From Patescibacteria group bacterium (GTDB lineage Bacteria; Patescibacteriota; Minisyncoccia; UBA6257; Brennerbacteraceae): 54,022 nucleotides of DNA. Of this stretch, positions 6,263-49,526 are shown in pieces; the stretch's first letter is position 1, and each line of letters starts with the position of its first letter. The notes below the pieces were generated by a model that had not been told where the DNA came from, did no database searches, and was given only the letters and a program-made list of their open reading frames with translations. The translations under genes were made by a program, and so were the position numbers. The stretch spans positions 1 through 54,022 of the forward strand of contig JBFMGR010000004.1 in NCBI GenBank assembly GCA_040753135.1. Reading direction: 5' to 3'.

Positions 6263-6280
6263 CTCGCTTTGGAATTACTT

Positions 6281-6587
6281 TGGTGCCGCAGGAGGGAATC
6301 GAACCCCCTACACGATGCTCTTCCTAGCCTTTGTTTTTATATAAAAACCAAAGAAAGGGACTATCTCATCACCCCGATAAGGGGTGCCAGGTCCTAAATG
6401 CAGAATTATTGTTGGAACTCATCTGCTAGTCTCTACACCTTCCTCGCTACCAATGTCCTGCGAGGCTTGGCTCGGGATTATTCTATTAACCAGAACTTCC
6501 CCCGAATTCACCCGGTTTTCATTTCCGCATTACTGCGAAACGGCCCGAAGAGATTAGGCATCTGCTCTACCAATGAGCTACTGCGGC
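6281..6587 (-). tRNA. tRNA-Phe(GAA), intron-containing; exons 6587..6556 and 6323..6281; CCA encoded
   Basis: Hand-folded. 5' exon GCCGCAGTAGCTCATTGGTAGAGCAGATGCCT, 3' exon GAAGAGCATCGTGTAGGGGGTTCGATTCCCTCCTGCGGCACCA. Joined, they give a cloverleaf with anticodon loop CUGAAGA, A73 and a GTGTx variable loop like E. coli tRNA-Phe. Confidence 0.8.
6324..6555 (-). ncRNA. Group I (IC3-like) self-splicing intron in the tRNA-Phe anticodon loop
   Basis: The intron starts AAUCUCUUCGGGC. CUCUUC pairs with 3'-exon GAAGAG (P10), and GGGC pairs with 5'-exon GCCU with a U.G at the splice site (P1). The intron ends in G. The internal strings CCGAGCCAAGC and GAAGGTGTAGAGACTAG match, as I remember them, the Azoarcus / cyanobacterial tRNA intron core. 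There is also a GNRA hairpin GCA-GUAA-UGC. Confidence 0.75.
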
Positions 6588-6596
6588 TTAAAATTT

Positions 6597-6707: not shown

Positions 6708-7414
6708 ATGAGAAAAGACAAAAGTAAAGCATTACAATTAAGAAAAATGGGGAGAAGTTATAATGAGATACATAAACTTCTGAAAATTCCTAAAAGCACT
6801 CTTTCTGGCTGGTTTCATAATTTAAATCTTCCGCTAAGAGCAAAGTCGCGATTGGGAAAACGGATAAAAGAAAAATCGTTAAAGGGGCTGCTTAAAAAAA
6901 GCAAAGAACAGACGAAAAAGGCTCAAGAAAGAATGAAACAAACAAGAAAATTAGCTAAGAGCAGCATTTCAAAATTGAGCCAAAAAGATCTCAAATTGAT
7001 TGGGGCTTCCCTTTATTGGGCAGAAGGATATAAACGCCCGATTATCCGCAACAATAAAGAAATTACCTCTCATCCTGTTGCTTTAACAAACCTTTAACAA
7101 ACAGCGACCCAAAACTTATTAAAATATTCCTCCGTTTTTTAATTGAGATCTGTCAAGTACAAGAAAAAAATATCAAAATAGATATAAGAATGTATAAACA
7201 TATGAGGAGAGAAAAAACTATTTCTTTTTGGCAAGAAATTACTGGTCTCCCCAAAAATCGTTTCGGAAAAATTTATTTAGGTATCAGCAAATCTAGCTCT
7301 AATAAACGACCATTTAATCGACTCCCTTATGGAACAGTCATGATAAGAGTTAACAATACAAACTTATTCCACAACATAATGGGGTGGGTTGAAGGCATAA
7401 AAGAAAAAACTTAA
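6708..7414 (+). pseudogene. HTH + LAGLIDADG-like homing endonuclease, frameshifted
   Basis: ORFs 6708..7097 and 7190..7414 belong to one gene. It has an N-terminal resolvase-type HTH (GRSYNEIHKLLKIPKSTLSGWF) and a LAGLIDADG-like motif IGASLYWAEG. Deleting one copy of the 11-bp duplication at 7081..7102 gives the continuous reading ..PVALTNSDPKLIKIFLRFLIEICQVQEKNIKIDIRMYKHMRREKTISFWQEITG.. Confidence 0.7.
7081..7102 (+). repeat. Perfect 11-bp tandem duplication CTTTAACAAAC x2 that causes the frameshift
   Basis: Read directly: gttg ctttaacaaac ctttaacaaac agcgac. Confidence 0.9.
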
Positions 7415-13245: not shown

Positions 13246-13317
13246 GGCCTAGTGGCGAAGAGGTAACGCGACTGTCTGCAAAACAGTTATGCGCCGGTTC
13301 GAATCCGGCCTAGGCCT
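13246..13317 (+). tRNA. tRNA-Cys(GCA), no encoded CCA
   Basis: Hand-folded: GGCCTAG/CTAGGCC acceptor, loop CUGCAAA, U73 discriminator (a Cys identity element). Confidence 0.9.
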
Positions 13318-13627: not shown

Positions 13628-13656
13628 TTGACGATGTGTTTACCATTTATTACAAT
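13628..13656 (+). promoter_or_regulatory. Promoter TTGACG-17-TACAAT positioned for a leaderless HNH mRNA
   Basis: The -10 ends 7 nt before the A of ATG 13663. Confidence 0.5.
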
Positions 13657-13662
13657 CTATAT

Positions 13663-14145
13663 ATGGCAAAGGGACGTTCGTGGGAAGAAAAACAACTTCA
13701 GGAAGCAGTTAAAAAGAGTTTTAGTTATAGACAAACGCTGATTAAATTAGGGTTACGCCCCACGGGTGGAAATTATCACCAAATTAAAAAATATATCAAA
13801 GAATTAAAGGCAGATACCACACATTTCAAAGGAAAGGGATGGAATCTGGGACTTCGGGGTATCGGCAAGCCGCGAATTCCAACCAAAAAAATATTAGTCA
13901 AAAACAGTTCTTTTCAAACTTATAAAGTAAAACAGAGACTTTTCAAAGAAGGATTAAAACCTCAATACTGTGAAGAATGTGGTTGGGCCGAAAAAACACT
14001 TGATGGATATCTGCCGCTCGAACTTGACCATATTAACGGAGACAGAACCGATAACAGAATCAAAAATTTAAGAATCCTTTGCCCCAATTGTCATAGTTTG
14101 AAACCAACTTATAGAGCAAGAAAAAATAAAAAGAAACCTGGGTGA
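13663..14145 (+). CDS. HNH homing endonuclease
   Basis: C-terminal HNH motif CEECGW..LELDHINGDRTDNRIKNLRILCPNCH. ATG 13663 preferred over GTG 13636. The last two codons, GGG TGA, are tRNA-Leu nucleotides 1-6. Confidence 0.8.
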   Translation: MAKGRSWEEKQLQEAVKKSFSYRQTLIKLGLRPTGGNYHQIKKYIKELKADTTHFKGKGWNLGLRGIGKPRIPTKKILVKNSSFQTYKVKQRLFKEGLKPQYCEECGWAEKTLDGYLPLELDHINGDRTDNRIKNLRILCPNCHSLKPTYRARKNKKKPG

Positions 14146-14221
14146 GTGGCGGAATCGGTATACGCGCAGCACTTAAAATGCTGTGCCGCGAGGCTTGAGG
14201 GTTCGAGTCCCTCCTCACCCA
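14140..14221 (+). tRNA. tRNA-Leu(UAA), type II, no encoded CCA
   Basis: Hand-folded: GGGTGAG acceptor, D arm GTGGCGGAATCGGTATACGCGC like E. coli tRNA-Leu, loop CUUAAAA, variable arm GCC-GCGA-GGC. Confidence 0.9.
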
Positions 14222-28417: not shown

Positions 28418-28515
28418 CAACGAATAACGAATTTATACGAATTTACGAATAAACGAATTTTTCTTTATTTGTTATTCGTATATTCGCTTATTCGCAACTG
28501 ATTCGTTATTCGTTG
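28418..28515. repeat. 98-bp imperfect palindrome built from 5 + 5 copies of ACGAAT / ATTCG(T/C)
   Basis: CGAAT at 28421, 28428, 28438, 28446, 28454. ATTCG at 28474, 28482, 28490, 28501, 28508. The outer 15 bp are a perfect inverted repeat. Confidence 0.75.
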
Positions 28516-28541
28516 ATTTAGTCCTGTTTAACGATTATAAT
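28513..28541 (+). promoter_or_regulatory. Promoter TTGATT-17-TATAAT for tRNA(CAU)
   Basis: The -35 overlaps the last ATTCG repeat. The -10 ends 19 nt before the tRNA. Confidence 0.6.
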
Positions 28542-28560: not shown

Positions 28561-28637
28561 GCCAGGGTAGCTCAGCTGGTTAGAGCGCGGCACTCATAAC
28601 GCCGAGGTCGAGAGTTCAAGCCTCTCCCCTGGCACCA
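28561..28637 (+). tRNA. tRNA(CAU), elongator Met or Ile2 (lysidine), CCA encoded
   Basis: GCCAGGG/CCCTGGC acceptor, loop CUCAUAA. G1-C72 and the lack of a GGG/CCC anticodon stem argue against an initiator. Confidence 0.88.
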
Positions 28638-28685: not shown

Positions 28686-28708
28686 CCAGGCATTGCCTGG
28701 ATTTTTTA
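28686..28708 (+). terminator. Intrinsic terminator after tRNA(CAU)
   Basis: CCAGGC-ATT-GCCTGG followed by ATTTTTTATTT. Confidence 0.7.
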
Positions 28709-28927: not shown

Positions 28928-28956
28928 TTTGACAATCATAAGGAAGTATGCTATAA
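28928..28956 (+). promoter_or_regulatory. Consensus promoter TTGACA-17-TATAAT (with TGC extended -10)
   Basis: Both hexamers are perfect and the spacing is 17. Confidence 0.65.
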
Positions 28957-28962
28957 TATAAG

Positions 28963-29067
28963 TATAATCGGGGGTTGTCAGAAGGCTGGCGGCCTTAGCC
29001 GCCTAAAGACTCTGTCTTTTGCGGACACCCCCAAACAACTCTCCCCTCGCAACTGCGAGGGGTTTTT
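28963..29067 (+). ncRNA. Candidate ~105-nt structured sRNA (three-way junction + intrinsic terminator)
   Basis: Closing stem GGGGGT(T)GTC/GACACCCCC, hairpins GGCGGC-CTTA-GCCGCC and AAAGAC-TCT-GTCTTT, then CCCCTCGC-AACT-GCGAGGGG-TTTTT. No ORF. Confidence 0.4.
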
Positions 29068-29069
29068 CA

Positions 29070-29098
29070 TTGCTAAAACTAAGTTTTTTTAGTAAAAT
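29070..29098 (+). promoter_or_regulatory. Promoter TTGCTA-17-TAAAAT positioned for a near-leaderless LAGLIDADG mRNA
   Basis: The -10 ends 9 nt before ATG 29107. No SD. Confidence 0.45.
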
Positions 29099-29106
29099 AA
29101 AATTTC

Positions 29107-29769
29107 ATGAGCCCAATGTTTAGAAGAAAGAATGAAGTGCTCTTTGAAAAATGGACTAGTCAAATGGCTTATGTTTTGGGATATATTTTAGCAGATGGCT
29201 CCTTAATCAAAAATAAACGAGGCGCTTATTTTACAGAGATTCAATCTATAGATAAAGAAATTATCGTGAAAATAAGGAAAGTTTTTGATTCGGATTTAAA
29301 AATCAGCGTTTACAAACCCAAAAAGGGCCGGATAAGATACCGTCTTCAGATTGGTTCTAAAAAAATATTTACAGATCTTTTAAAACTCGGCATAAAACCA
29401 AAGAAAAGTTGTCATGAAAAACTGCCCAAAATTCCCAGTAAATACTTTTCTGACTTTTTGAGAGGATATTTTGATGGCGACGGAAGTGTCAACATCTGTA
29501 CATATCAACGAAAAGACAGAAACAAAAAATCAACGGTTTTAAGCTCGGGTTTTACTTCTGGCGGCAAATTGATTCTAAAACAAATATGGCGGAATCTAAA
29601 ACTGAAGAAAATTATAGCTGGTGGGACCCTATATTTTCATGAACGTAGCTACCGTCTTTGGTTTTCCATTCATGATTCTTTATCTCTCTATAACTTTCTT
29701 TATCAGAACGTCGAAAATGGTTTATTTTTAACGAGAAAAAAGAGGATTTTTGAAAGATATAAAAATTAA
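29107..29769 (+). CDS. LAGLIDADG homing endonuclease (two-motif, monomeric type)
   Basis: Motifs MAYVLGYILADGSL and FLRGYFDGDGSV. The stop TAA (29767..29769) is immediately followed by tRNA-Asp nucleotide 1. Confidence 0.85.
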   Translation: MSPMFRRKNEVLFEKWTSQMAYVLGYILADGSLIKNKRGAYFTEIQSIDKEIIVKIRKVFDSDLKISVYKPKKGRIRYRLQIGSKKIFTDLLKLGIKPKKSCHEKLPKIPSKYFSDFLRGYFDGDGSVNICTYQRKDRNKKSTVLSSGFTSGGKLILKQIWRNLKLKKIIAGGTLYFHERSYRLWFSIHDSLSLYNFLYQNVENGLFLTRKKRIFERYKN

Positions 29770-29844
29770 GGGCCAGTGGAGCAGCCCGGAGTGCTCGTCT
29801 CCCTGTCACGGAGAAGGTCGCGGGTTCAAATCCCGTCTGGCCCG
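29770..29844 (+). tRNA. tRNA-Asp(GUC), no encoded CCA
   Basis: GGGCCAG/CTGGCCC acceptor, loop CUGUCAC, GTCGCGGGTTCAAATCCCGTC like E. coli tRNA-Asp, G73. Confidence 0.9.
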
Positions 29845-29879: not shown

Positions 29880-29908
29880 AAAAAACAAGCTCTTGGGGCT
29901 TGTTTTTA
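29880..29908. terminator. Bidirectional terminator between tRNA-Asp and rpsR
   Basis: AACAAGC-tcttggg-GCTTGTT flanked by A and T runs. Confidence 0.6.
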
Positions 29909-29937
29909 TTCTTAATTCCCAATTCTTTATTCTCTGT

Positions 29938-30141
29938 TTACTCGGGCAGATATGGCAACAAGCTCATCTGCCGGGCTCGTTTAACTGCTCGGGCCAGCTC
30001 CCGCTGATGTTTGGCGCAAAGTCCGGTTTTTGCCCGAGGTTTGATTTTTTGGGAAACCGCTAAAAAACGCCTTAAGGTTTCAGCGTCTTGCCAATTTATT
30101 GGCGCTCGGCCGCAAAAATAACATTGTTTTGTCTTTTTCAT
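29938..30141 (-). CDS. rpsR: 30S ribosomal protein S18
   Basis: 67 aa, CYFC..INWQD..LRRF.. S18 signature, in the S6-SSB-S18 operon order. Confidence 0.9.
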   Translation of the reverse strand: MKKTKQCYFCGRAPINWQDAETLRRFLAVSQKIKPRAKTGLCAKHQRELARAVKRARQMSLLPYLPE

Positions 30142-48711: not shown

Positions 48712-48817
48712 ATAAAAAAATTATACCACAACTGCAAGCGCCCCTGAAAAGAATCACTAACCAAAAACTAATCCCTGCCAGAAGCCAGCAAGCGCCTTTG
48801 GCGGAAACTCCAACCAG

Positions 48818-48889
48818 TATCCCTGAGCAGAATCGAACTGCTATCTCAACCTCCGGAGGGTTGCGTTTTGTCCATTAAACTACAGGGAC
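48818..48889 (-). tRNA. tRNA-Arg(CCG), no encoded CCA
   Basis: Hand-folded: GTCCCTG/CAGGGAT acceptor (G1.U72), loop CUCCGGA, T arm AGCAG-TTCGATT-CTGCT. Confidence 0.82.
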
Positions 48890-48890
48890 A

Positions 48891-49526
48891 TCAAAACTTT
48901 GCCATCTTTGATTTTTCTGCTCCTTTCTGGTCAATAATAATTAAAGCATGAAAATCCTGATACAGCCGATAATCTTTAGGCAAATTTTTTTCAAATAAAT
49001 TCTTTAAATAATCATAGGTTAAATTTTTCGCCAAACGATGTTTTTTTACCCAGCGGCGAGTGTATTCATCAATAACAAAACTTGGTTTATCGCAACCGTA
49101 GAGCAAAATTGAATCAGCAGTTTCCGGGCCAATACCATAAAGCGAGAGCAGTTTTTTTCTCGCGACAATTAAATCTTCTTTTAAAAAACCTTTTAAGCCG
49201 GCATAGTCTTTGATTAAAAAAGAACATAAATCCTTTAATCGTTTGGACTTAACGATATAAAACCCGGCTGGTTTAATTAACTTTGCTAAAAATTTTTCTT
49301 TTAGTCCGACAATTTTCTTAATTGACAGAACGTCGATCCGATCTAAATTTTTCAGAGCCAACTCGGCATTATGCCAGGTGGTTCTTTGGGTTAAAACTGC
49401 GCTAATTATAATAATCTCTTTTTGTTTTAGGGTTTTATTCCGAGCGCACCAGTTCGGCCAATACCCAACTGGCTGGTCATATTGATTAAGAAGTTTTTGA
49501 TAAAGCGAATAAATCCTGTTTTTCAT
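48891..49526 (-). CDS. Endonuclease III-like HhH-GPD DNA glycosylase
   Basis: HhH motif LLSLYGIGPETADSILLYG and downstream VIDEYTRRW. The stop lies 1 nt from the tRNA-Arg 5' end. Confidence 0.75.
   Translation of the reverse strand: MKNRIYSLYQKLLNQYDQPVGYWPNWCARNKTLKQKEIIIISAVLTQRTTWHNAELALKNLDRIDVLSIKKIVGLKEKFLAKLIKPAGFYIVKSKRLKDLCSFLIKDYAGLKGFLKEDLIVARKKLLSLYGIGPETADSILLYGCDKPSFVIDEYTRRWVKKHRLAKNLTYDYLKNLFEKNLPKDYRLYQDFHALIIIDQKGAEKSKMAKF

Follow-up and report, generated by a model that had tools for sequence, protein, structure and literature searches.

An endonuclease gene that ends where tRNA-Asp begins: a probable homing-endonuclease cassette in Patescibacteria

Why should an endonuclease gene end on the last nucleotide before a tRNA? 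This arrangement is found in a stretch of 54,022 nucleotides from a Patescibacteria group bacterium (Brennerbacteraceae; GenBank assembly GCA_040753135.1, contig JBFMGR010000004.1, positions 1 to 54,022), which is here called the window. An open reading frame (ORF) for a two-motif LAGLIDADG endonuclease of 220 amino acids (29107..29769, + strand) starts with ATG and ends with the stop codon TAA at 29767-29769, and nucleotide 1 of tRNA-Asp(GTC) (29770..29844, +) follows directly. A preliminary description of the window had reported this flush junction, and it is accurate to the base. We regard the locus as probably a free-standing LAGLIDADG homing-endonuclease cassette, in which the ORF would be the translated 5′ leader of the pre-tRNA-Asp; this interpretation is drawn from sequence.

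The endonuclease and its pairing with tRNA-Asp

The ORF product matches the Pfam family LAGLIDADG_3 (E=5.9e-10) in two stretches with the motifs GYILADGSL and GYFDGDGSV. Both had been noticed before (as YILADGSL and YFDGDGSV), and both catalytic aspartates are intact. The match to Pfam LAGLIDADG_WhiA is weaker (E=2.7e-5), and the product has no C-terminal helix-turn-helix (HTH) like that of WhiA. The catalytic residues D30 and D125 do not vary among 24 relatives (24 of 24) or in a larger set (82 of 82). An AlphaFold (AF2) model generated from 24 relatives, with a predicted local distance difference test score (pLDDT) of 91.4 and a predicted template modelling score (pTM) of 0.89, shows a tandem alpha-beta-beta-alpha-beta-beta-alpha fold. 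Its top Foldseek matches are I-Tsp061I, E-DreI, I-AniI, I-WcaI and I-SceI, with E-values from 3.8e-11 (I-Tsp061I) to about 1e-7; a sequence-profile search also places I-Tsp061I first (E=3.8e-6), and the identity to solved LAGLIDADG enzymes is about 20%. Between the window and six relatives the proportion of nonsynonymous differences (pN) is 0.13-0.31, and that of synonymous differences (pS) is saturated at 0.71-0.90; for most pairs this saturation prevented calculation of the ratio of the two substitution rates (dN/dS). Pairwise identity averages 47% for the ORF, 53% for GatA and 35% for a neighbouring gene, here called X. The ORF is thus under purifying selection, and from its sequence and predicted fold the enzyme is likely to be active.

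More than 2,000 relatives of the ORF were found at 40-74% identity, nearly all of them in Patescibacteria, with a mean column identity of 58% for the family. A scan with one genome per species yielded at least 600 stretches, of which at least 512 were confirmed as carrying ORF relatives, and the best 80 loci were examined. In 54 of these, ARAGORN calls a tRNA-Asp(GTC) adjoining the ORF, whose stop codon lies in nearly all cases between 24 nucleotides inside the tRNA and 20 nucleotides before it. Another 23 loci, where ARAGORN calls no tRNA-Asp, were considered as exceptions; this was dropped, since on reading the sequence each contains a tRNA-Asp that is split after GT|C (G34-U35) of the anticodon by an insert of 190-370 nucleotides. 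Two loci run off the contig end, which leaves 78 that can be assessed, and in 77 of them the ORF is paired with tRNA-Asp; the sole exception (L070) has tRNA-Cys. In most relatives the two genes overlap, whereas the gap in the window is 0 nucleotides. The stop codon is frequently located inside the tRNA, commonly as TAG at tRNA nucleotides 8-10, or ending at nucleotide 15 or at nucleotides 21-24, and the C-terminal tails of some family proteins in the databases look like translated tRNA. The position is fixed across many classes of the phylum.

As a control, 80 viral loci with relatives of 26-36% identity were analysed: 78 have no tRNA within 4 kb, and tRNA-Asp is present in none. At the family level the flush geometry is therefore far beyond chance (77 of 78 loci against 0 of 80). 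One viral locus (L229, 4007-4782, on a 427-kb contig) has a LAGLIDADG ORF that overlaps tRNA-Trp by one nucleotide within a cluster of eight tRNAs; it is the only viral relative among the 80 loci with nearby tRNAs in flush geometry.

Upstream of the ORF in the window a promoter-like site is located (29070..29098, +), consisting of TTGCTA as -35 (29070-29075), a 17-nucleotide spacer and TAAAAT as -10 (29093-29098). It lies where it had been placed before, with the gap to ATG 29107 now measured as 8 nucleotides, all in A/T-rich sequence; a purine-rich Shine-Dalgarno (SD) sequence was looked for ahead of this ATG and none was found. The promoter match (9 of 12 positions) is weak taken alone, with 11 such sites per 2 kb against 4.7 expected. 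It gains credibility because the site is kept in the two closest relatives (L201 and L202, 74% and 73% identity), where TTGTAA or TTGTCA-17-TAAAAT precedes the ATG by 7 or 9 nucleotides and, in one of the two, likewise follows a terminator. The conserved N-terminus MSP(I/M)F(K/R) favours ATG 29107 over the ATG at 29116 chosen by the gene caller. At the other end, tRNA-Asp is uninterrupted, does not encode CCA and is supported by an ARAGORN call and by Rfam (58.5 bits); the ARAGORN call is one base too long, and the true 3′ end is 29844, with G as discriminator. A terminator-like hairpin followed by a T-run (29881..29913, +) closes the unit of promoter, ORF and tRNA.

Across the family the downstream junction is constant and the upstream junction is variable. 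A -10-like hexamer ends exactly 6 nucleotides before the start codon in 31 of 76 loci, 7 nucleotides before it in 5 more and 8 nucleotides in 2 (nearly all other offsets 0-4). At a distance of 6 nucleotides, the expected transcription start coincides with the first start-codon base or lies beside it. The near-leaderless promoter gains support from the family and from the nearest relatives of the window, and the window ORF, which has no SD, fits the geometry of a leaderless mRNA. In about 30 loci a decayed 5′ part of tRNA-Asp (tGGTTAG...CTGTCAC, from the D-loop to the anticodon loop) is found between tRNA-Met and the ORF. In these loci TATAAT, often with an extended TGn, comes directly after the stub, followed by six nucleotides and the start codon. 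Loci with the stub are spread over two thirds of the neighbour-joining tree; the window has none upstream of its ORF. Promoter and ORF usually travel together, and the about 30 loci with the stub have a promoter built on the decayed 5′ half of tRNA-Asp. Other loci have a different upstream border: tRNA-Met ends 2-17 nucleotides before the ATG in seven (L002, L013, L016, L018, L024, L029 and L058), so that neither a promoter nor an SD could fit in. In four of them (L013, L016, L018 and L029) the distance is 2-4 nucleotides, and the ORF is bounded by tRNAs on both sides. In three further loci (L005, L014 and L156) the stop codon of an upstream coding gene is exactly at the ORF start codon.

Empty and occupied sites, tRNA-Asp introns and mobility

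Is the ORF a fixed companion of tRNA-Asp? Metagenomes were scanned for a pattern derived from the tRNA-Asp 3′ half, a search that is blind to the presence of the ORF. It returned 53 tRNA-Asp loci with enough upstream sequence, six of them with the ORF. Twelve loci are empty, with only 1-22 nucleotides between tRNA-Met(CAT) and tRNA-Asp, and two further loci without the ORF have spacers of 85 and 169 nucleotides. Empty and occupied loci have flanking genes in common (for example gatA) at 65-80% nucleotide identity, and the recurrent gene order is ligA-gatC-gatA-X-tRNA-Met-[ORF]-tRNA-Asp; seven loci have the ORF-tRNA-Asp pair in the opposite orientation with respect to gatA. Two occupied loci (L008 and L049) have premature stop codons in the ORF. 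At one syntenic site the ORF can be intact, decayed or missing, as expected from the life cycle of a homing endonuclease gene.

The comparison of empty and occupied tRNA-Asp loci that had been proposed earlier has thus found both states. It did not confirm the niche envisaged there, a short leader behind a tRNA promoter: the ancestral site is instead a spacer of 1-22 nucleotides between co-oriented tRNA genes, tRNA-Met/tRNA-Asp here and tRNA-Cys/tRNA-Leu for the HNH unit described below. Two tRNA-Met/tRNA-Asp spacers (L120, 957-1041; L106, 4832-5000) contain tRNA-like fragments broken in the D-loop region by a hairpin element common to both, CCCnnTAGTA...ACTACGGGGCAAGC; the L106 spacer has in addition a partial duplicate of the 3′ half of tRNA-Met.

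The insert in the anticodon of the adjacent tRNA-Asp is a group I intron, found in 23 of the 77 linked loci (about 30%). These introns start after U(-1), end with G(omega) and have no ORF, since at 190-370 nucleotides they are too short for a protein. At the Rfam gathering threshold the intron was found in L044 alone (Intron_gpI, 82 bits); with an E-value threshold, sub-threshold Intron_gpI matches were obtained in 6 of 10 loci, at 35-45 bits. That tRNAs of unnamed phyla can carry group I introns is, in general terms, already known (Williams 2020, bioRxiv 10.1101/2020.01.27.920355). Here they occur only in ORF-linked tRNA-Asp (24 of 86 against 0 of 14, one-sided p=0.016, the two sets being drawn differently). 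The intron may be copied along with the cassette, or it may shield its carrier from a nuclease that cuts near the anticodon. Linked and empty alleles also differ at nucleotide 49 of tRNA-Asp (29818 in the window), which is G, forming a G-U pair with nucleotide 65, in 53 of 60 ORF-linked intron-less alleles and A in 12 of 14 empty ones. When only alleles fitting one common search pattern are compared, the linked ones have 14 G and 3 A and the empty ones 2 G and 12 A (p=2e-4), and the contrast is also seen within the metagenome sample alone (p=0.007). The base at this position may indicate whether an allele is sensitive or resistant to the nuclease, or it may just reflect common ancestry.

Identity of the ORF correlates with that of GatA at r=0.34-0.39, compared with r=0.45-0.48 for the neighbouring gene X as control; because this control pair is itself weakly correlated, the test of vertical against horizontal descent lacks power. 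The best single hint of mobility, which we consider suggestive, is a pair of loci from a Nomurabacteria genome (L009) and from a bin labelled Daviesbacteria (L015). Over the ORF and the intron-containing tRNA-Asp the two share 84% DNA identity, and their proteins share 87%; the homology does not extend past the 3′ end of tRNA-Asp, where unrelated genes follow. The bin labels may be wrong, and a rearrangement is an alternative.

Neighbouring units and other ORFs beside tRNAs

The HNH/tRNA-Leu unit is a second cassette in the window, and the preliminary description had compared its geometry with that of the tRNA-Asp locus. A promoter-like site, TTGACG-17-TACAAT (13628..13656, +), ends 6 nucleotides before ATG 13663 of an HNH endonuclease ORF of 160 amino acids (13663..14145, +), whose stop codon TGA forms nucleotides 4-6 of tRNA-Leu(TAA) (14140..14221, +). 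The upstream neighbour is tRNA-Cys(GCA) (13246-13317). The HNH ORF has 4,794 relatives at E<=1e-10, and the best 120 listed are mostly 66-75% identical; the window protein has no match in the loci fetched for the LAGLIDADG family. Six homologue loci from different candidate phyla were fetched. In all six, tRNA-Leu(TAA) stands beside the HNH ORF, starting between 36 nucleotides before and 6 nucleotides after the ORF end, and in four of them tRNA-Cys is located upstream. TTGnnn-17-TAnAAT precedes the HNH ATG by 6 or 7 nucleotides in five of seven loci including the window (the others being L285-L287 and L290). A clear decayed 5′ half of tRNA-Leu lies upstream of the HNH ORF in L285, where its anticodon loop is now the -35 box; this is the only locus with a significant match, the window having none. 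The similarity to the tRNA-Asp locus thus holds at both ends of the unit and is conserved in the HNH family.

Among 530 tRNAs in the fetched DNA, 25 tRNAs other than tRNA-Asp have an ORF of at least 120 codons that ends within about 20 nucleotides of tRNA +1; about 16 of these ORFs are endonuclease-like and about 9 look ordinary. The endonuclease-like ones include an HTH-plus-LYWGEG family at tRNA-Met (nine loci), LAGLIDADG_2 at tRNA-Met and HNH_5 at tRNA-Leu(TAG). An ordinary example is found in the window itself, where an HhH-GPD base-excision repair gene (48891-49526, in the region 48817-49526, - strand) ends 1 nucleotide before tRNA-Arg(CCG). Flush adjacency alone is therefore not diagnostic.

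The HTH-plus-LYWGEG proteins have about 225 amino acids, with an N-terminal HTH, which is all that Pfam detects, and a conserved core LYWxEG...FTNSDP. Their ORFs at tRNA-Met (L014, L026, L030, L076, L100, L114, L124, L180 and L192) end between 18 nucleotides before and 10 nucleotides inside the tRNA, and some are in loci with an empty tRNA-Asp site. In profile comparison the similarity to the LAGLIDADG family is weak (hhalign E=0.063), and matches in the Protein Data Bank (PDB) cover the HTH only; the family is a putative nuclease. A frameshifted member is located in the window at about 6708-7400 (+), with the N-terminal part at 6714-7031 and the C-terminal part at 7091-7399 in a different frame. 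The third, decayed endonuclease gene reported to flank tRNA-Phe does therefore exist, but it is divergent from tRNA-Phe and not flush with it; elsewhere, intact members of the family run flush up to tRNA-Met, tRNA-Ile(TAT) or tRNA-Trp. The tRNA-Phe(GAA) gene (6278-6590, -), which ARAGORN missed, is itself split by a group I intron between nucleotides 33 and 34 (Rfam 54.2 bits, 6329-6565); its parts are GCCGCAGTAGCTCATTGGTAGAGCAGATGCCT | intron | GAAGAGCATCG...GCGGCACCA.

Two small units precede the tRNA-Asp cassette in the window, each with promoter-like and terminator-like sites. One is tRNA-Met(CAT) (28561..28634, +), the usual left neighbour of the cassette site, which is 470 nucleotides upstream here, between a promoter-like site (28513-28541) and a terminator-like hairpin (28686-28700) of its own. 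The other is a structured RNA of about 100 nucleotides (28964-29068, +), preceded by a perfect TTGACA-17-TATAAT with TG (28929-28957). It folds into a long hairpin and an 8-bp GC-rich terminator with T5 (minimum free energy -47.4 kcal/mol, z=-4.8). The latter hairpin (8 bp, 7 of them GC; 29043..29067, +) resembles an intrinsic terminator, ends this small-RNA-like unit and stops 3 nucleotides short of the cassette -35 hexamer. No Rfam family matches the structured RNA at the gathering or the E-value threshold, and a blastn search of the sequence ahead of the ORF in 80 relatives gave no copy. L201 has another promoter-RNA-terminator unit in the equivalent place, with no evident similarity. The RNA was therefore set aside as a part of the cassette and is counted as a separate unit. 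In L201 the S18 gene (1-60) precedes the cassette and shares its strand, whereas in the window (29938-30141) it follows the cassette on the opposite strand; between the window and this nearest relative, the ORF-tRNA-Asp unit is inverted relative to the rpsF-ssb-rpsR genes.

Weighing the explanations and comparison with known systems

What would the cassette do? Its order is promoter, start codon at or a few nucleotides from the transcription start, ORF, stop codon, tRNA-Asp and terminator, and from this we infer the transcription start, co-transcription and processing. A single RNA would be made, in which the ORF forms the 5′ leader of the pre-tRNA-Asp; co-transcription is suggested because ORF and tRNA are too close for a tRNA promoter to fit between them. 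Translation would proceed without leader or SD, and the conserved spacing of the -10 hexamer argues for leaderless initiation. Cleavage by RNase P at tRNA +1 would release the tRNA and at the same time determine where the mRNA ends. For the window ORF this mRNA would end in UAA; in most relatives the cleavage would take the stop codon off. Since no other promoter is plausible, the supply of tRNA-Asp would depend on transcription through the endonuclease gene, and this dependence on the element's promoter would hinder loss of the element. We further infer nuclease activity, a target site and homing: the enzyme would cut tRNA-Asp loci that lack the cassette, and repair from an occupied locus would copy the ORF and tRNA-Asp as a unit, together with the nearby group I intron if present. 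The tRNA-Asp stub could have arisen from a break inside tRNA-Asp that was repaired from a donor without homology on the left-hand side.

Several observations weigh against the homing cassette. Empty sites would equally arise by loss of an old gene, and vertical descent with losses is compatible with the data, as the ORF tracks GatA about as weakly as the control does. We found no pair of closely related genomes that differ only by the ORF, the flanks of empty and occupied sites being 65-80% identical. Synonymous sites are saturated even between nearest relatives, and recent spread was not seen in the sample except in the pair L009/L015, with its taxon labels from metagenome bins. An intact tRNA-Asp is always found beside the nuclease gene, so that a target inside tRNA-Asp needs an explanation for immunity. 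In the window the -10 hexamer is only TAAAAT, and the strong promoter at 28929-28957 could read through its terminator. Many relatives start with GTG, which is less usual for leaderless translation.

The main rival is a domesticated host gene, old and vertically inherited, which would have a role linked to tRNA-Asp as intron splicing helper or regulator and would have been lost in places without being mobile. Strong purifying selection with saturated synonymous sites would fit such a gene, as would a mean identity of 47% that is near that of GatA (53%) and well above that of gene X (35%), the position fixed in many classes of the phylum, an ORF-GatA correlation not clearly below the control and the restriction of introns to ORF-linked tRNA-Asp (24/86 vs 0/14, p=0.016). 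We nevertheless consider domestication unlikely, because both catalytic acids are invariant (82/82), whereas bI3 maturase, WhiA and other LAGLIDADG proteins with no role beyond splicing help or regulation typically lack them. About 70% of the linked tRNA-Asp genes, including that of the window, are also intron-less. Moreover, the ORF is missing from syntenic loci of related genomes, decayed copies occur, the cassette is found in unrelated contexts and in both orientations, and an unrelated HNH family is built alike.

The introns raise a different possibility, namely that the ORF encodes the partner nuclease of the ORF-less tRNA-Asp intron in collaborative homing: it would cut intron-less tRNA-Asp near nucleotides 35/36, the intron would protect the carrier genome, and both would spread together. 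The introns in 23 of 77 linked tRNA-Asp genes, inserted after GT|C and scoring 35-82 bits, are too short for a protein of their own and are confined to ORF-linked alleles, and the upstream tRNA-Asp stub ends a few nucleotides past the anticodon loop, which would fit a break thereabouts. However, most linked tRNA-Asp genes have no intron although the ORF is intact, and these would be exposed to their own nuclease unless other differences protect them. The association with introns comes from differently drawn samples, and an intron that starts 35-37 nucleotides from the ORF could also ride along by co-conversion. We rate this explanation as rather improbable. That the ORF abuts the tRNA by coincidence, through the minimal spacers of a compact genome, is hardly credible: ordinary genes can be flush as well, such as HhH-GPD at 1 nucleotide from tRNA-Arg and about 9 of the 25 surveyed flush ORFs, but chance does not explain the same tRNA partner in 77 of 78 family loci against tRNA-Asp in 0 of 80 viral loci with relatives, about 16 endonuclease-like ORFs among those 25, or the HNH/tRNA-Leu pairing in 6 of 6 contexts.

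If the homing cassette is the right explanation for tRNA-Asp, is it a single case? We tentatively propose, with more doubt than confidence, that Patescibacteria contain a general, undescribed class of selfish cassettes, each with an ORF for a homing endonuclease that makes up the translated 5′ leader of one particular pre-tRNA. Unrelated nuclease families, two at least and perhaps four, would have converged on it: LAGLIDADG_3 with tRNA-Asp and HNH with tRNA-Leu(TAA), possibly also HTH-LYWGEG and LAGLIDADG_2, both with tRNA-Met. In such a class the mRNA would start at the start codon, RNase P would sever the tRNA and the stop codon would often be lost, so that each transcript would give either protein or clean processing. 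The cassette would bring its own copy of the tRNA or of its 5′ half and leave the original as a decaying stub, and the cell would be in a sense addicted to the element, whose promoter its tRNA supply would need. Should the cassette interpretation hold, homing endonucleases would have a new home in cellular genomes, namely the 5′ flank of specific tRNA genes, with a distinctive mode of expression from an mRNA without leader or 3′ untranslated region (UTR) that is matured by tRNA processing. This would account for thousands of genes annotated as 'hypothetical' or 'HNH/LAGLIDADG endonuclease' in Patescibacteria and provide natural enzymes that may recognise tRNA gene sequences. It would also bear on the tolerance of very small genomes for selfish DNA, where an essential tRNA may depend on an element's promoter, and touch on the spread of ORF-less tRNA introns. 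For annotation, it would mean that an ORF running into a tRNA gene in such genomes is a genuine feature and no error.

A literature search returned no description of a family-specific, flush and leaderless ORF-tRNA unit in cellular genomes, and the known systems each share a part of the arrangement. The monomeric enzymes of the I-DmoI and I-Tsp061I type, from archaeal rRNA introns, resemble the ORF product in their two motifs, both aspartates, a length of about 220 amino acids and the predicted fold. Unlike them, the ORF is free-standing, abuts a tRNA and lies outside any intron, intein or rRNA insertion: it is upstream of an uninterrupted tRNA-Asp, and where an intron of 190-370 nucleotides exists, this is downstream in the anticodon. 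In the same phylum, LAGLIDADG enzymes have been described in rRNA insertions of Candidate Phyla Radiation (CPR) bacteria (Tsurumaki et al. 2024, PMC11270868); these are rRNA-borne, and the main text of that paper does not mention tRNA.

Closer in position is SegB of phage T4, reportedly a free-standing homing endonuclease in a tRNA gene region; it is a GIY-YIG enzyme of a phage. The present family differs in that its host is a cellular phylum and its tRNA pairing is family-specific. Like the cassette, both SegB and HNH genes in mycobacterial tRNA clusters are free-standing endonuclease genes between tRNA genes, with a proposed role in the preferential inheritance or transfer of the neighbouring tRNA genes (PMC6582537); the consulted parts of these sources do not mention fixed one-to-one tRNA pairing, a stop codon that is flush or overlapping, a leaderless start or a decayed tRNA half. 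Where the adjacent tRNA-Asp carries a short ORF-less group I intron (about 30% of loci), the locus resembles another system. There, the free-standing endonuclease F-CphI is said to act in collaborative homing with an ORF-less group I intron in cyanophage psbA. Most loci of the present family, including the window, differ from this in being intron-less.

The proposed expression recalls the tRNA punctuation reported for mitochondrial transcripts. The ORF of some relatives is directly bounded by tRNA-Met, ending 3-12 nucleotides ahead of the ATG, and by tRNA-Asp, starting no later than the stop codon, and as in mitochondria tRNA processing would excise the mRNA, possibly without a complete stop codon. 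Unlike the mitochondrial case, a single selfish gene on a bacterial chromosome would be concerned, and in the window it is flush on the 3′ side only and has its own promoter. Genomic islands, finally, integrate into tRNA genes and carry a replacement for part of the tRNA. The cassette has in common with them an intact tRNA accompanied by a partial copy of it that has been displaced and is decaying, but it is the 5′ half that is duplicated here instead of the 3′ part, and the element is only 0.7 kb long and has no integrase.

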